The notes: generated from the sequence alone by a model not told the origin. A DNA stretch of 64,000 bases from Massalongia carnosa (GCA_965645245.1 OZ287079.1:1798001-1862000); one strand, 5' to 3'. Numbered from the stretch's first letter, positions 11,392 through 20,627 are shown. Made by a program: numbers and translations.

Positions 11392-12423
11392 TTAGGAGGC
11401 TGAGGGAGGGTGTTGAAACCGGCGTGAGGTGGCTAAGATGTGGGATTGATGCGTTTGGATATAAAGCTTGTAGGAGTCTGACTTCCACCGGCCTAGTAAT
11501 TGAATGTCGTTCTCGCTAAGACCGGCTTCCTTGGCCGACGTCGCTGCACCTCTTCGGAAAGAGTGACCTGAATAATTACCTGTTATGCCTAAGCTCTTAA
11601 GCCCTGATCGCATCGCGGTGGTCAAATATTCGCGTGTGAAAGCCTTTTGTTTATAGAATAAAGGGGAGGTTGCAGGTAGTGGAAACCGGGTGATCAAATT
11701 ACGAAGGGATTTTACCGCGCAGGCCTCGTCCCCTGATGCGGCTATCGTTAGCGTAATGCCTCGACGAAAGGGGTCGGTTTTGGACGCCGGCAAGGAGAGG
11801 AACAGCTTATCTGCTTCTAAGTGGACGGATTTCCTAGTTAAATGCCATGATTCGAAGCTTGGGTCTGTTAGGTCTCTGATAGTGTACGTAAATTCGCCTG
11901 CGCGAAGAAATCCTGCGAATGCTAGACAGTATGCTGCGTGTAGAGTGGCCTGCGCGTTGTCGGCTAAGTCCAATCGTTTCACTAAACGAAGGAGTATGAT
12001 TTTCGTAATGGGCATTCGCTCTTTCTTGTCGGCTTCGCCATTCTTTCGCTTTATGCCGGCAATGATTCTATTTAGTACGGGATGGTGAAACGTTTCTAGA
12101 TCCTCAAAGCCCGTGTCGATTTGGCTGGACCGAACTCCGGCTAGATAGGTCTTGATGGTTTTGGGCTGTATTTTGTGTTCTCCTAGCATCGCTATCCAAG
12201 ATGACAAGGTCTGTATGGTTGCCGGAAATGGAGTCGCGTTCATTGATATTCTGCAGTATGTTACAAAGCTTCTTCTCCCTGTGTCATACAGACTGCGGGT
12301 TTTGACTGCCAAGCCCCACCACAGGTATCTAGCTGCTGGTCGGGATAGAGGTATTTTGCTATACCAGCTTTTGGGAGGGTCGCGTGCTAGGATTTGAGTA
12401 GAAGTTCCTGTAAATTGGGCCAT
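11392..12423 (-). CDS. Tyrosine recombinase of the YR retrotransposon (343 aa, intact)
   Basis: Catalytic motifs FLRAGE, SKTD, GHSFRRG, LGRWKSDSYKLY. Confidence 0.93.
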   Translation of the reverse strand: MAQFTGTSTQILARDPPKSWYSKIPLSRPAARYLWWGLAVKTRSLYDTGRRSFVTYCRISMNATPFPATIQTLSSWIAMLGEHKIQPKTIKTYLAGVRSSQIDTGFEDLETFHHPVLNRIIAGIKRKNGEADKKERMPITKIILLRLVKRLDLADNAQATLHAAYCLAFAGFLRAGEFTYTIRDLTDPSFESWHLTRKSVHLEADKLFLSLPASKTDPFRRGITLTIAASGDEACAVKSLRNLITRFPLPATSPLFYKQKAFTREYLTTAMRSGLKSLGITGNYSGHSFRRGAATSAKEAGLSENDIQLLGRWKSDSYKLYIQTHQSHILATSRRFQHPPSAS

Positions 12424-13946
12424 TTGTTAGCGATTTTCTCCAATTTGCCCCGCGATAGGAGGTCAGCGAGCTCATTTGACTTTGTTGGGATCCAACGTAT
12501 TTCAATCCGAATATCATGAATAGCGGTCAGCATTGCGATTGCCCGAAGAGGCCGCATAGCGTTTCCACGAATAGATGATTTCCTTATTCCTGACGTGACA
12601 GCAAAGTTGTCACAGTGGAAAATCACATGGCTCCCTGCACAAAGGGGGAGCCATTTACGCAAAGCGTGTAATATCGCTGTCATTTCTTTGACATTGATGT
12701 GAGTTGGCCTAAGCCGAGACGTGAAACGTTCAGAAAGTGCATGCTCAGCGGGCATGGTAAAACTGGTATGATCCTCCACTAGGATGTAGGCCCCAATGCC
12801 GTACCCTGATGAGTCCGTCCAAAGACGAAATGTCTCGCGAGGACGGTCTAACATGCGAATGCCATTCCATTTAGGTAAAAAAAGATGCCACCACTGCAGG
12901 TCGGCTTTGATATTCTCGTTAATATGAATATGACGCCCACGAGACATGGCTTTTGCGTTAAAAAGACGTCGGAGGAAAGCTCTCCCTGGCACTACCACTT
13001 TAGCTGCGAATGACAAAAATCCCACCAAGGAGTCTAATTCCTCCCTTCTAATCGATGATTTTTGCAAGGCCTGTTTGACGAGGTCTTTGGCTTTCTGCAG
13101 TTTGTCTGGTGGTAGCCGTGCTTCCATGAGCATAGTATCCAATTCAATGCCTAAGAAATCGATCATATGACCAGTTTTATTTTTCTTTTCGTTGACTGCG
13201 ATTCCAAGGTCTTTGCAAAGATCGAAGAAGTACCGAGTGAAAGCTTCTGCTTCGGGATTAGTGCGGCAAACTGCCAAGAAATCATCTAGATAATGAAGCA
13301 CATCATGTTGATTTTGTAAACACATCCAATTTATCCCCTTTGCAAACAAATCGAATAGAAAAGGAGACGTGCGCAAGCCGAAAGGTAGAAAGCGCTCCAT
13401 CCAGTAAACATTATCCCATTGAAATCCCAGCAACCACCAGTCGCTTTTAGCCACGGGTATATGGCGAAAGGCATCGGAGAAATCCCTTTTTACTAATATG
13501 CACCCTTTTCCTTGTTTTCTTATTTTGGCGACAGCGTCATCGAATGTGGGGTATTCCAAGGCTCCCCATTCCTGAGGGATGAAGTCATTTACCGACGATC
13601 CTTCAGGGTGAGATAAATGATGGATACGGCGCCATGTACCATTTGATTTGGGTACGAGACCTAATGGGGATGATATGAACTTGGAGGGAAGAATATCTAC
13701 TCGCGTCAATCGTCCCTTATCCCTCTGCTCCTCGACATCTTTAGTGAGTATATCAGGAGCTTCTTTTGCTGATAGCAGATTGGGGCTGAGGATGAATTGT
13801 TCTGGGCCGGTATACCCAATCTTGGCCCCATACCGAATAATATCAAAAATAGCCTGCTTGTACACGTTATCGGGATGAGTTTCTAGGTGCTTCTTCCAGC
13901 CGGCGAGGATGAGTGGTCCTTGCTAAAGAGCCTCGAGTTTGTCCAT
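12387..13946 (-). pseudogene. DIRS/Ngaro-type reverse transcriptase-RNase H; one TAG near the N-terminus
   Basis: WRRIHHLSHP, KRDFSDAFRHIPV, LPFGLRTSP, YLDDF, WTDSSGYG, INVKEM, HCDN, NELADLLSR; in-frame stop at 13923-13925. Confidence 0.9.
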
Positions 13947-14655
13947 CAGTCTGTACGGAAAACCTTCCGCGATATGGTCATATGGGCCGGCTAGTCAATC
14001 CTTCCTATTGAACGGTGTCCGATTCGGATTGTTACGAGATTGGCTACTTGGGTTGCTATTGTTGGGTGTGTTGCCCCTGCAACTAAGTGCTGGGTGCTGT
14101 CTCCCGCAGTTGCTGCAGACGTGTTGGTATCTGCAGTCTCGGCAGTCCTTGCCTGTGTTATACTGATGGCAAGGGTAGGGCCTTGGAGTATTGCTGTTTG
14201 AATTGGTTGTGTATCCCCCAAATCCGGTCCGGGTTTGAAGGTTGTTGAGGGGCCTGTCGCGTTTAACCAGGTATGTGTTTTCCAAGTCTGGGTAGCTTTG
14301 CCTCCATTTTACGGGGTCGTCCACTCCTTGATACCACAGCGTTCTATGAAATAGCATATGAACTTGCAGCAACGACTCCCATGTGTAGGTATTGTGAAGC
14401 AAAATCAGCCGGTCCTCGTATTTCATGAAGGCCCTTGCTAGATCTTTGAACAGACTTGGTTGTGCAAAGTGCAATAATCGTCGGCCTCGCTTAGCTGCCT
14501 CCATACGAGGTGTACCACCTCACGCGGGGGACAAAAAAAAACTACACCAAAATTTAACCGGGTTCAAGCCCCCACCAAAACACAAGCAATTTCCATACAA
14601 TTTTGATGGGATAATCACCATTTCAACAACCAGTCATCCAATTCATTCAATCTAT

Positions 14656-16766
14656 TCAATAACCAGTCATTTTACCCTCACCATCCAAAACAGCTCTCAA
14701 TCTATCTGGCATAGTAGACACCCGTTCATTGATAAATGCCTGGGAAACGTTCGCCCACCCCTCATAAATTAGCCCCTTGGTCGTATCATCATCCCAATGA
14801 GGATATTTTTTTAAATATTGCTTCGGGGCCTGCCAGCAATTTTCTATGGGGGCCAAATCAGGTGAACATGGACAGTTGAAATAGTGCTTCAGATCATTGT
14901 TCTGCTTCCAAGTGCGTACAATGTTTGATTTGCCTGGTCCATGTCCAGAATCACCGTCTTCTTCTAAGACGAAATCGTGTTTTGCTTCAATTGTAATGGG
15001 CTACGAGACCAGTAAGCTTATCACGAGCGACACTGATCTCGAAAGGGGAAATGCTCAGCGTGAGAGGTGGAAGATAGCTACTACGTGCTGGTCTCCGAGA
15101 GTATATGTGATCCAAAGAACTAATCGATGTGGAAGTGCTCAGACCAAGAGATCTCGTCCGAGACCCAAACGTAGGTTGTTCATAGAATAAAGACTAATTG
15201 CTAACGAATACTACAAGATTCGTTCTGGTATTTATCCTACTCACCCCAAGCCTATAGCCTTGGGAGCCTTGGAACCTTAGGAGCCTTGCAACCCACTTCT
15301 GACCTTATCGTCTTACATCTAACCATCCCTCAGGATCCATCTACGAACTCGGCGTTCGCTGGATCATCTAGTCAGCCTCGAGCAGCCTTCTAGACCTTCC
15401 CTTGCAAGGTAGAACACTTCTACCTCCGGCTAGATCCCTCACTACATTGCTAGCCTGCCTCTAAACATAAAGTCTAGACGCCGAGGCTATGTAGCTTCAT
15501 TTCGCCGTCACCACTACCAACGTAGCGATGGAAGGTTACCTCCGACTGAATCTATATCTACAATGCGGACCTGCCTCTAGACACAAGGTCTAGACCACAA
15601 GGTCATGTAGGTTCATTCAGCCGACATCACTACCAACGTAGCAATAAAGGTTGAAGCTGAAGTTTACACCGGGGAGGCCGAGCTCAAGCTGCGTCCAGCT
15701 AGCCGTGCCTCCTGCTACAACTCTTGATCCATCAAGAGATCGAGTAGCTCCGGGTAGGCCAGTAGATTCCATATAGAGTTCACGGCTTCTCCACAGGAGT
15801 TCGCCTTACTCCATGGCAATCTACCACCACGGCCTCGACAGGTGTTTGATCTGTAAGCAGTCTAGAACGTAGTAACAACTAATTCGGAGTTGTGTGGCAA
15901 GGTGGCGTCGTGTCAACCTCGACGGCTGTGCGACTAAGTACTACGGCCTGGCTCATGCTAGTTAATCCCGCAACCGCCGTAGGCGATCACGTATCCTTCT
16001 AGCGCCATCCGTATTACATCAATCCAGGCTTCACAATAGGCTCCAATATAGAGTCGATATAGACTCGTTGACTCATCTTTCCATTGAAGTTTCCAGGAAC
16101 TTTGTAAAAGTAGATATCTGACTTGAAGTCATGACCTGCAGCAGCCCAACAATGATGTCTCTTCTTGACGGCCTCGTCTGGTTCATCTGCTTCTTGAATA
16201 CAATCATGACAATAACGTTCACCTAATCTTCGTATGATGCGTAATTTGCCCTGAGGTCCCCATCCAAAGTGCACTTCGTCGCTAAATCGAACTTGTTTCC
16301 AGTCTTCTGCATTTGGATATCTAGAAGCATAGCATCTGACCACTTCGAAGCTTTCTTGTCTTCTCGTTCACCCATCCCTTTCTGCACGCAATACATTTGT
16401 GATAATCCATGGTACCCATGATTCGTTGAATGGTTTTGCCACTGCAGTCTAGGCTACTTCGAAGCCCAATTGCTCCCATGTAAGAGCGCGCGCCTCCATA
16501 CCTTCTTCTTCCAATAGCCGTTCCATTTCTCTAATCAATTTAGGCGTAACAATTTTGTGACGCCCACGAGCTTCAGAAACATCGGAATTATTATGATGAC
16601 GGCGTGATGGGGCTCCTTCACGCAGGTATGCATAGCCCCTCGTACGTTCCACATCAAATGTGCGAAAAACATCCTCTTTGTGATAAGAAATGCCTTGCTT
16701 TTCGCAAAATTCAACGGCTCCCTGAATTTTAGCTTTGGTAGGAGTCTCGATATGTTTAGAATTCAT
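14656..16766 (-). pseudogene. Tc1-like transposase (DD37E), interrupted by a solo LTR, a stop and a frameshift
   Basis: RFSDEVHF ... VLEEDGDSGHG ... SPDLAPIENCW; 37 residues between the second D and E. Confidence 0.88.
14992..16018. mobile_element. Solo LTR (1027 bp) with an internal ~115-bp tandem duplication
   Basis: TGTAAT...ATTACA; TSD TCAAT (14987-14991 / 16019-16023). Confidence 0.88.
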
Positions 16767-17174
16767 AATAATGATAATTATCCCATCAAAATCGTATGTA
16801 AATTGCTTGTGTTTTGGTGGGGAGTTGAGCCCGGTTAAATTTTGGTGTAGTTTTTTTTTTGTCCCCCGCGTGCACCTCTAGTCGGGGAAAGCGGTCTGCG
16901 TAGGCAAGCGATCTGCGTAGTTTCAATTTCAGGATTTGTCCAAATTCACCCATTTTACAACCTATTTTGCAGCTTTTTGCACCACTTCTCGACCGCAACC
17001 TACGACCATTAACTGTTATTATTCATACCATAGATAGATATTAACTGCACATCCTAACTACTCATTGATTAACCGGGATATTCACCTTTATTCAATCGCG
17101 ACCGCATCAGTTGCATGCCTCCTATTTCGTCAACCACTCTCTCCCTATTTCATCAACCGCTCCCCACCTCAATC

Positions 17175-19303
17175 ATGAATAGCAGCAGCGTCATGAATAA
17201 GAGCCTTATTAAAACCAGTGATTCTATTGCAACGCGCGTGCAAAATGCTAAGCAGTTTTTATTAGAAAACTCCAAGGAAAGCATCGTTTGCGCTGCTCGA
17301 ATCTTCAACCTCGCCGAGACCACTCTTTACAGTTCAATTGAACGTGAAAAGACGCCGCCGAAGAAAATTGGAGGGCAGAACAAAATACTGGAGGAGCATC
17401 AGGTCAGAGCCAATCACGAATTCATTCGATCTCTGATTGCGTATGGCATTCAACCTACTCATAAAGTGGTTTTTGCTGCCATTAAGACTCTGAAACGTGC
17501 TCAAGATGCTGAATTCAATGGTCCAAGTCCGCGGTGGTTTAGGCAATGGTGGAAAGACAATGGCCTGCACAAGATAAAGACCAAGCCGCTGGCAGTTGTT
17601 CGATATACTGCGGCTCAGGAGTCAGATGTGAGATCATGGTTTGATCGATATCAGCGGGTTCTTGCAGAGTTGGGGATAACTCGTTCCCAAGATATCTGGA
17701 ATTTTGATGAAGCAGGATTTCGAGTTGGGTGTATGAAGGGTCATGAAATTCTAGTTCCATCAGATATTAAGGAGTTCTATTCGATCAGTCCAGAAAATCG
17801 CAAATCTCTCACCATAATCGAAAGCATCAAAGCCGCCGGTCATCAACCACCCCCCCCCGTTTTAATCATGCAAGGTCGTAGAATAATGCAGAACTGGTTC
17901 CAAGAAGGGCTGCCCACGGGGACTCTGGTCCAAGTATCAGAAAGTGGGTTCATCACCGATGAAATAGCCAGTGAATTTTTGAAGCATTTCATTGCGAATA
18001 CAAACTCAGGGCCTACAAAGCAGTGGAAATTGATGCTCATGGATAATCATGGGACTCATTGCACCCCTGAGTTTATAAAGCTTGCCAATGAAAATCACAT
18101 TCGCCCTCTCCCCCTGATACCACATCTGACTCATTGTATGCAACCCCTTGATGTGGGTGTATTTCAACCCTATAAGCATTGGCATGATAAGGCTATCCAA
18201 GATGTCCTTGCAGAGTTCAACACCGAGTATTCATTGACTCGGTTTTGTCAAGACCTCACCAAAATACGAGACAACACTTTCACAAGCTCCACCATTCGAT
18301 CTGCTTTTAGAAAGGCCGGAATGTGGCCTATCAATAGGGGGTTATGCATTAAACAGCTTAAAAAATTCGCCGCCCCAGGGGTTGAAGGGCCCGTTCGAAT
18401 GCTGCGGGGTGAGCAGGTGATGCGGGGCCACCTGCCGGGTCAGAAGCGCGCGAATGAGGATCCCCCCCTTCCAGTGTTGCCCGCACGAATTCAACCTCAA
18501 ACCTTCGATGATGTTGAAAGGTGCTGATTGATTGGTTGCCAAAAATTCAGAATGTTACGCAGTGGAGTGATGATAATCGGCCAAACGAGTTTGAACAGTT
18601 TGTTGATAGTGCGAAGCAGATTGTTGCAAAATCAAATCTCACCGACTTCGAACTGAAAGTTATCCGCAAAAGGAGAAATGATGAATTGCTACACAAAGCA
18701 ACCTCTCGCAAGAGGATAAGATCTGCCTATTCGGAGGCGTCAGGACTCACAAAGGAGGACGCAGAACGAGTCATTGCCGAAAAGCAAGAAAAAGAAGAAC
18801 GAGAGGAAAGAAGAAAGGAGCACTAAATTACATGAGAATATGGCGAATGGAACGTAATGCTATACACATCAAGGGAGTTGCTGCGCGAAAAGATGAAAGA
18901 GTTCGGCAAAAGCAAGTCAAGGAGCTCGACAGGCAAGGCGTCATCATTCCTATTGATAAGCTGACTCCCATTGAAGATCCCGAAGCAGAATGGAAGAAGA
19001 CAAACTCTATTTAGAAGATGGAGGAGGCGAGGAAGGAGGCGGCAAGAAAGAAGAAAGGGCAGACTGCAGATGAGACAGATGAAGATAGGGATGAGATCGA
19101 ATTCATCACGGATGCTATAGGTGATGATGGTCTATGAGTTATAGAAGATAATTCTATTCGCGAGCAGACAAACTTCATAGCTTTTGATGAGAATAATGAG
19201 AATTATGAGGGTGATGAGGGTGATGAGGATGAGAATGATGAAGGTGATGAGGGTGATGAGGATGAGCAGTTTAACTTTTATCAAGGAGGCTATCGTCAGA
19301 CTA
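17175..19303 (+). pseudogene. Fot1-like DD35D transposase with frameshifted, acidic C-terminal part
   Basis: WNFDEAGF, MDNHGTH, QPLDVGVF (35 residues D-D); frameshift near 18520, stops at 18826 and 19014. Confidence 0.88.
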
Positions 19304-20627
19304 GGAGTTACTATTAGAACGCGCAATTGATATATATCTACTTATTAATAATATTTGCAAATGAGGTTGAAAATAAAGCAAATGGAGGTTGCAAATCATG
19401 ATGAGAGGGCGTCGCAAATGAGTTGTAAATAGGTGATAAAACTGGTGAAATTGGATAAAATATAATGCATTCCCTGTTGATAAATGAGCAGTTAGGATTT
19501 GCAGTTGATATCTATCTATGGTATGAATAATAATAGCTAATGGTCGTAGGTTGCGGTGGAGAAGTGTCGCAAAAAGCTGCAAAATAGGTGGTAAACTGAA
19601 ATTGAAACTAAGCAGATCGCTTGCCTACGCAGACCGCTTTCCCCGACTAGAGGTGGTACACCTCGTATGGAGGCAGCTAAGCGAGGCCGACGATTACCGC
19701 TTGCCAGTATACCAAAAGACAACGAATTAGGTGGGTGATACCCTTGATGTCGCTCAACGATGCGTCATCCTCGCCAGTAATGACCTCCAGACCTTTGCTG
19801 ATATTGATAGATTTCTTCGTAGACTTGCTCAGAGTAACGTCGCTGCACATCTTGGCGATATTGATGGGGTCAAACTTATTTTCCAAAATTTGCTTGAAAT
19901 ACAGCTGGTTTATGGCCGGAAAGTCACTTGTCAGAGGGAGGATTCTTGGGTCATCCGTACCTTCGCTCTGGAAGGCCTGATTTGTCTGTTGGGACCCCCC
20001 ATGCTGAAATCCCGTAGGGGCCTCCTCCACCTCCAACGCGGCCTGTCTGTCGGTAATTTCCTTCCTAAGCTTTCTCATTTCGGCCTGGCGCCCCTCTCGT
20101 ACCAAAATGTCGCGTTGTACGCGAAGTTCAAGTAGCTCATCAGGGGTACCGGGGCGTGTAGGCCCTTCTTCTACTGACTGGCCGGCCTGCATTGTTGCGG
20201 AGGTCGGCTGAGAGTCAGGCACAAGGGGGGTGAGGGGGCCAGTGGGGCCGCTATCGTCGGCGGTGGACGCAATGCGGCGGGTAGTAGGCATTCTGTCTAT
20301 GGAAGGAAGTAGAGCGGAGCTAGGTTTATACGTGTTTATCGAAGATGAAGAAGGGAAGAAGGATGGATTGTTCGTTAGGTTGGAAGATTGTTGGATCGGA
20401 CTCAAAAACTACTATGCAGTGCTACCTCCGAATCCGAGATGATGAGGAGATGTAGGACAGCTTTGGCCCTCTATATAGCCTCCATCTCCCCCCTGTCATC
20501 CATCCTTCCATATCCGATCCCCCGTCGTTATCCGAACCAGCTCCTGGCGGATAACCGTGCAAAACCGAAGAGGTCTGGATTTTGCATCACCTGCTGTCCC
20601 CGTCATGCGTGGAGAACCGCTGGTAGC

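Follow-up and report, generated by a model that had tools for sequence, protein, structure and literature searches.

A 64,000-nucleotide stretch of the Massalongia carnosa genome (GCA_965645245.1 OZ287079.1:1798001-1862000; hereafter the window, with positions counted from its first letter) carries a Tc1-type DNA transposon that is flanked by a direct repeat of CACCT rather than by TA. The original prediction, made from this sequence, held that the 5-bp target-site duplication is real and that the element belongs to a fungal IS630-Tc1-mariner (ITm) lineage. Both claims were borne out, the latter by fold and motifs, and we found that the 5-bp non-TA duplication is a trait of the whole lineage and not a peculiarity of one copy. 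The features of the locus are as follows.

14516..14520, plus strand: left CACCT copy of the 5-bp target-site duplication, read from the sequence and supported by the empty site
14521..16872, minus strand: Tc1-type DNA transposon of family A, a non-autonomous copy (intact siblings are 1327-1329 bp)
14521..14622, plus strand: terminal inverted repeat (TIR) at the 3' end of the gene, beginning CACGCGGGGGAC and continuing with an A-run
16770..16872, minus strand: TIR at the 5' end of the gene
16873..16877, plus strand: right CACCT copy of the duplication
14656..16766, minus strand: transposase gene, interrupted by a solo long terminal repeat (LTR) and by small deletions near 16325, 16345 and 16454 (intact siblings encode 361 aa, DD37E)
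14992..16018, no strand assigned: 1027-bp solo LTR (TG...CA) with its own TCAAT duplication at 14987-14991 and 16019-16023
14477..19694, plus strand: host Fot1/pogo-like transposon with a DDE_1 open reading frame (ORF) at 17073-18527 and TA at 14475-14476 and 19695-19696
19651..19655, minus strand: empty target site, a single CACCT, in the opposite TIR of the Fot1-like host
11392..13922, minus strand: tyrosine-recombinase (YR) and reverse transcriptase (RT)/RNase H ORFs of a putative DIRS/Ngaro-type retroelement, so labelled from the YR plus RT arrangement
13995-14519 and 19677-20408: gag-like frames of the DIRS/Ngaro-type retroelement, flanking the Fot1-like host

At 2352 bp, the window copy is longer than its intact siblings only because the 1027-bp solo LTR sits inside it. 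Its TIRs, whose first bases are CACGCGGGGGACAAAAAAAA, are ~100 bp long and ~90% complementary, close to the ~95 bp first estimated, and the transposase motifs recognized at the outset (FSDE, EEDGDSGH and SPDLAPIEN, with DD37E spacing) are present. The three small deletions shift the reading frame, and with these and the solo LTR the window copy is dead. The same LTR insert is found in three other family-A copies, and the four loci carry four different target duplications, indicating that dead copies were mobilised in trans. The window element lies 39 bp into the left TIR of the Fot1/pogo-like host, which itself interrupts the gag-like region of the DIRS/Ngaro-type retroelement.

Further copies in the genome were collected with a family-A end pattern, one mismatch allowed (126 matches, 100 of them listed), and with a variant CACGCGGGTGAC end pattern (135 matches, 100 listed); families were set at 95% identity or more. 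The fetched loci provided a main set of 63 TIR-paired copies with distinct flanks. Three others (L065, L074 and L077), all of which carry a 5-bp duplication, were left out because their flanks repeat those of counted copies. Tabulating the length and sequence of the duplications, as the original prediction had proposed, revealed an exact 5-bp duplication in 52/63 copies, against a chance expectation of 0.24 on average and 4 at most (10,000 shuffles of the 63 flank pairs), and TA on either side in none. Exact matches at lengths 7-10 were found in 0/63 copies and at length 2 in 8, and not one of 146 distinct outer ends finished in TA. By family, the duplication was exact in 31/32 copies of family A and 20/26 of family B. 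Family A encodes a 361-aa DD37E protein, and its copies have a median DNA identity of 99.7% to a reference copy, which demonstrates recent transposition. The genome holds 26 stop-free full-length ORFs of this family, and the reconstructed transposase suggested earlier is therefore unnecessary. Family B encodes a 367-aa DD38E protein that is 53% identical to that of family A. Other, more distant families in the genome (40 loci) gave 25 TIR pairs, of which 14 had an exact 5-bp duplication, 5 had one with a single mismatch and none had TA.

The trait extends to relatives elsewhere. A protein search returned 422 relatives, and the named organisms among the 120 listed are all ascomycetes (Pyrenophora, Bimuria, Clathrospora, Ophiobolus, Macroventuria, Botrytis, Rutstroemia and Colletotrichum), with some of the GenBank entries labelled 'HMG box protein' or hypothetical; a profile search returned 473 clusters at E 1e-30 or better. 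From 331 confirmed metagenome loci we kept 80; a TIR pair was present in 38 of them, 32 of which had distinct flanks. An exact 5-bp duplication was present in 21/32, one copy had a single mismatch, one had 7 bp and none had TA. Protein identity among these relatives falls to ~39%, and their ends begin with CAC, CAA or CTC. [quoted passage not shown] A scan of prokaryotic genomes found seven distant DD34E matches (25-39% identity) and no close one; L281 was without a convincing TIR. L282 is a DD34E Tc1-like ORF on a 1.1-kb contig of a Flavobacterium assembly and may be eukaryotic contamination.

TA-type families in the same genome served as controls. The DD34E Tc1 families (20 loci, 4 without a TIR pair) were TA-flanked in 16/16 TIR pairs and the Fot1-like host ends in 30/30, so the method detects TA where it is present. 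The best 30 PF13358 matches (L251-L280) were rejected as a further control, being IS630-like ORFs with no TIR pair within 1.5 kb. These multi-copy DDE_3 ORFs each have a long unrelated ORF as neighbour, an apparent intron divides some of them, and they possibly belong to larger or TIR-less elements.

A duplication of this length could also be mimicked by mis-set element ends or by repeated host sequence around a true 2-bp duplication. Without an anchor, TIR alignment frequently ran past the ends into the semi-palindromic target and reported false repeats of 1 or 3 bp; the anchored search that replaced it used a pattern picked after this first look, and 42/80 metagenome and 15/40 own-genome loci had no TIR pair. 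The duplicated sequence is variable and GC-rich, however, with 46 different 5-mers among 52 sites, and unoccupied sites contain the 5-mer once. The original prediction had pointed to such a site in the opposite Fot1 TIR of the window, and CACCT indeed stands there once, as it does in the 10/30 host termini read elsewhere in the genome in which this site is empty. A second host repeat (24 copies) is empty in 17 copies, occupied at GTTGG in five (three by family A, two by family B) and occupied four bases further on in one, and the remaining copy carries the footprint GTTGG-CAC-GTTGG. In total we found eight footprint-like alleles, in which the two duplication copies enclose CAC, GTG or both. 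At the window's own site, CACCT-x-CACCT occurs in five differently flanked host copies (x = GTG, GTG, AGTG, CACGTG and CCACGTG), and a third site, adjoining the window site in the host TIR, reads GAGGT-CACG-GAGGT and GAGGT-CACGGTCAC-GAGGT, these two being the two ends of one small element. Empty sites and footprint alleles together fix the ends of the element. The footprints retain both copies of the duplication plus terminal bases, and with the empty sites they effectively refute mis-set ends or repeated host sequence as an explanation, to which we give next to no chance.

The footprints also bear on excision. Their remnants are the terminal three bases of the element, as expected from a cut of the non-transferred strand at 3 nt from the end, and we strongly infer excision of the Tc1/mariner type with such a cut at each end. 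Morris et al. state that Mos1, too, makes its non-transferred-strand cut 3 nt into the element, and that its 2-bp stagger is strictly at TA (PMC5481204). Unpairable CAC overhangs may explain why both remnants are often retained. A footprint scan in a strict TA-N...N-TA context gave one chance-looking match and was not used. The idea of a 3-nt shift of the TIR ends was dropped, as the A-run starts at base 13-14 in TA-type and 5-bp families alike.

The window site has been struck more than once. On contig 8, a second family-A insertion at CACCT sits in a different host copy, in its opposite TIR; this copy is 94.7% identical, as against 95.9-98.0% for the empty copies. Another family (L322) occupies the same site, so the insertions at this hot spot are independent of one another. 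Several transposon types have used the first 60 bp of the Fot1-like TIR (14477-14520 and 19651-19694; L308-L337) as a hot spot: 5-bp families are inserted at CACCT, GAGGT and nearby and a TA-type Tc1 at GTAC, and several copies carry TA-x-TA footprints.

Target preference was analyzed in 86 sites (172 half-sites) pooled from three data sets. T was found at -3 in 105/172 half-sites and A at -2 in 102/172, with TA at these two positions in 62/172 against a background of 7% (p 4e-28). C was never found at -2 (0/172), G or C occupied +1 in 144/172, and the duplicated core is 64-70% GC. The bias, which is alike in all three data sets, defines a loose palindromic consensus, TA-N-SNNNS-N-TA, with at least one TA in 56/86 sites. 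It could have arisen if the same enzyme, using a 5-nt stagger, had simply lost TA recognition, the TA at -3/-2 then being due to passive bendability of the DNA or to a small number of hot-spot repeats. Each position carries modest information (at most 0.6 bit), TA on both sides is rare (6/86) and several sites lie in repeats, all of which would fit. The absence of C at -2 from three independent sets and the insertion of different families at identical positions in two host repeats argue against passive bendability, which we nonetheless regard as a serious contender, if somewhat short of an even chance. That target capture has instead been rewired to two outer TA half-sites, without central adenine flipping, we judge about evenly poised between right and wrong.

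Elements of the clade have a single transposase ORF between two TIRs, ~1.3 kb in all, encoding a DD37-41E protein of 350-400 aa, with an A-run near base 13 of TIRs that start CAC, CAA or CTC. Pfam searches placed DDE_3 above the cut-off and HTH_Tnp_Tc3_2 at E 1e-5, with NF033545 (IS630) below the cut-off, and a profile search matched SB100X at E 1.8e-18. An AlphaFold model (pLDDT 81) matched Mos1 over its full length (Foldseek E 1.6e-11) and the Sleeping Beauty catalytic domain (6.7e-11). The best fold match was the SB100X catalytic domain (Z 20.5, root-mean-square deviation 4.0, 211 residues); Mos1 scored Z 17.6-18.0, mariners 17.6-18.4 and retroviral integrases 9.7 or less. The modelled fold, paired helix-turn-helix and DDE domains and the structure of the element indicate that it is a member of ITm. 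The TA duplication with 2-bp stagger of Tc1/mariner sensu stricto, which the original prediction had asked to be looked for in other copies, was found in 0/63, 0/25 and 0/32, and the elements depart from the DD34E spacing, WPxxSPDL motif and CAG(T) termini of DD34E/Tc1.

Of the 18 aligned rows with verified duplications, 16 could be read, and all of these have DD37-41E spacing; NC, NA or NT takes the place of WP in 46/46 matched rows of 48. At the position where Sleeping Beauty has K-H-G-G and L297 has K-H-S-G, the clade has a loop that is at least 3 residues longer, a Gly-rich insertion of 3-7 residues follows the second Asp, and FNCxxSPDL stands for WPxxSPDL. In Mos1, R186/F187 fills the gap left by the flipped adenine, and Morris et al. 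equate this region with the K-H-G-G loop of Sleeping Beauty (PMC5481204). In a quick tree all 18 verified rows fell within a clade of 51 rows, with the TA-type and bacterial rows outside it (Shimodaira-Hasegawa-like approximate likelihood ratio test, SH-aLRT, 99). A second quick tree omitted one identical row, and in it the 17 proteins whose 5-bp duplication was verified formed one side of a branch (SH-aLRT 99). L297 was rejected as the direct sister lineage: its profile similarity is higher (27% vs 23%), yet the trees leave its position open. L297, L298 and L304 form a TA-flanked DD34E family with asymmetric CTAGG/CGAGG ends and several motifs in common with the 5-bp clade (27% by profile).

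The Tc1-like ORF might still be a passenger, the CAC-ended TIRs being moved in trans by another 5-bp transposase (Transib-like or hAT5-like), since CAC...GTG ends with GC-rich 5-bp duplications are a Transib signature. However, the element is so compact that its one ORF leaves no space for another, and TIR and protein diverge together across families (39-100% identity) with the catalytic triad retained. The 3-nt footprints fit Tc1/mariner excision, and the A-run has the same start, base 13, as that in the genome's TA-type Tc1 TIRs. Transib has also been reported absent from fungi (PMC5751038), and we consider a passenger ORF very unlikely.

Together, these data strongly support a fungal Tc1-type cut-and-paste clade that very probably excises like Mos1 or Sleeping Beauty, while its integration has a 5-nt stagger and duplicates no set sequence. 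In the mechanism we propose, a dimer of the Tc1-type transposase would cut the non-transferred strand 3 nt inside each end and leave CAC overhangs on the donor, whose repair would give the duplication, then CAC, GTG or CACGTG, then the duplication again. Integration takes place with a 5-nt stagger, as the duplication shows, in a loose TA-N-SNNNS-N-TA target; because the footprints point to Tc1/mariner-type excision, only integration would be altered. The dimer would read a pair of half-sites, each with T at -3, A but never C at -2 and G/C at +1, around the GC-rich 5-bp core, with the DNA probably bent at the two outer TA steps and not sharply kinked with adenine flipping at a central TA. Candidate determinants are the longer loop that replaces K-H-G-G, the Gly-rich insertion after the second Asp and the change from WPxxSPDL to FNCxxSPDL.

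Several observations weigh against this interpretation. In addition to the looseness of the target consensus and the rarity of TA on both sides, an exact 5-bp match is missing in 11/63, 11/25 and 11/32 TIR-paired copies; six of these misses differ by one base, two have swapped flanks and most others are unexplained. Duplications were read in this genome and in metagenome loci, and in no named fungal genome. The metagenome copy L157 carries a 7-bp duplication (CCCAGGT), perhaps a one-off accident, perhaps another shift in stagger, and the clade proteins P0168 and P0228, outside the verified rows, are DD34E. The loop is a weak argument: the K-aromatic pair is missing from the TA-type family L290 too, and 9/43 clade loops contain one. 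Both quick trees are without bootstrap, have long branches meeting and include only four TA-type rows.

The two copies with swapped flanks, L212 and L213 (G000 C12:909212-921091), are inverted copies ~10 kb apart whose 5-bp flanks are reciprocally exchanged, consistent with an inversion of ~10 kb between them. L126 and L127 (C13) have one swapped flank in common, and the flanks of L246 (G000 C9:1003281-1005163) are mutually inverted for >100 bp, as if it were centred in a palindrome. The L157 subgroup, which includes L159 and L163, has CAAGG(C/T)CTGGCC ends, and no duplication was seen in L159 or L163.

Around the element, the DIRS/Ngaro-type retroelement has open frames for YR (344 aa) and for RT/RNase H (511 aa), and a 9-bp-period acidic repeat (Asp/Glu/Gly codons) lies at 19177-19269, where the Fot1-like ORF region has its 3' end. 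The 1027-bp LTR has at least 38 other near-identical matches, some of which adjoin IS630-like DDE_3 ORFs (C22:1172994 next to C22:1174427). Among public sequencing runs, one labelled as a lichen metagenome contains 0.60 of the window stretch's words, and no RNA run is among those listed as containing the stretch. In four public runs compared with one unique-flank insertion, no contig spans the element, and one contig stops at the duplication and continues unlike.

The trait was not described in the open-access literature searched, a search that left subscription journals, Repbase and Dfam outside. The parts covered of PMC3227409, PMC2836289, PMC2817418, PMC2851567, PMC7325037, PMC11544213, PMC13469147, PMC5751038, PMC3441728, PMC4522978, PMC8533490 and PMC5481204, and of bioRxiv 2022.03.07.483234 and 2021.09.26.461848, contain no description of it. 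A literature search with TIR 12-mers gave 101 matches, and the 40 listed are all unrelated by title. Two unassigned MITE families with 5-6-bp duplications (PMC4522978) and two 5-bp Smini repeats read as possible solo LTRs (PMC2851567) have been reported. Supplements of PMC7325037 and of the bioRxiv papers may hold members of the 5-bp clade. We lean slightly towards the trait being unrecorded so far. On balance, and with similar reserve, we favour an undescribed, old and widespread ascomycete branch of ITm, of family or superfamily rank, in which integration was rewired from a 2-nt stagger with base flipping at TA to a 5-nt stagger with two outer TA half-sites and excision stayed Tc1-like.

If true, this would be a natural change of cleavage geometry within the enzyme family of Sleeping Beauty and Mos1, converging on the 5-bp duplication of the Transib/Mu/HIV type. 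Duplication length is a main criterion in DNA transposon classification, and mariner/Tc1/IS630 elements are treated as targeting TA with a 2-bp stagger, 'strictly' in the wording of PMC5481204. A natural lineage that keeps this fold and has numerous intact, nearly identical copies alongside TA-type relatives in one genome makes the determinants of stagger length and target choice testable, which bears on redesign of Sleeping Beauty and Mos1 target specificity. For annotation, short derivatives with CAC ends and 5-bp duplications would stay unclassified or be misfiled as Transib or solo LTRs.

Among known systems, DD34E Tc1 elements (Sleeping Beauty and the TA-type families L290, L293 and L297 of this genome) resemble the 5-bp clade in having a length of ~1.3 kb, a single ORF, the HTH_Tnp_Tc3_2 and DDE_3 domains, the SDE...D...SPDLxPIE triad, the same catalytic fold (Z 20.5), 3-nt footprints and an A-run near TIR base 13. 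In contrast to them, the 5-bp clade has a variable 5-bp duplication and not TA, CAC/CAA/CTC ends and not CAGT, DD37-41E spacing, FNCxxSPDL for WPxxSPDL and a longer loop at the K-H-G-G position, at ~21-27% identity. Mos1 differs in its DD34D triad, 2-bp stagger and adenine flipping at TA (PMC5481204). Mos1/mariner is alike in fold over the whole length and in the cut of the non-transferred strand 3 nt inside the end. Zator/TP36, Tc4/Tc5 and TBE make 3-bp duplications. Sailor (DD82E) duplicates TATA (PMC8533490). These ITm branches are precedents for a duplication that departs from TA, but their targets are short and defined by A/T, whereas the 5-bp clade has a GC-rich core of free sequence and another triad spacing. 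Impala, an ascomycete Tc1-like element that is likewise DD37E and is compared here by description, duplicates TA. The impala subfamily has been described as fungal and DD37E (PMC7325037). DD37E spacing is common to the unrelated clades TRT, L18 and L31, and spacing alone is no proof of kinship. Transib/RAG elements have CAC...GTG ends and GC-rich 5-bp duplications, as does the 5-bp clade, but their transposase appears unrelated and the 5-bp clade protein is half the size. RAG/Transib entries were absent from the listed fold matches and Pfam hits, and the Tc1 fold accounts for residues 5-361. Within other superfamilies, too, duplication length is known to change, as in hAT5 and hAT6 and in retroviral integrases, and with this precedent the 5-bp clade is a variant and not a new category.
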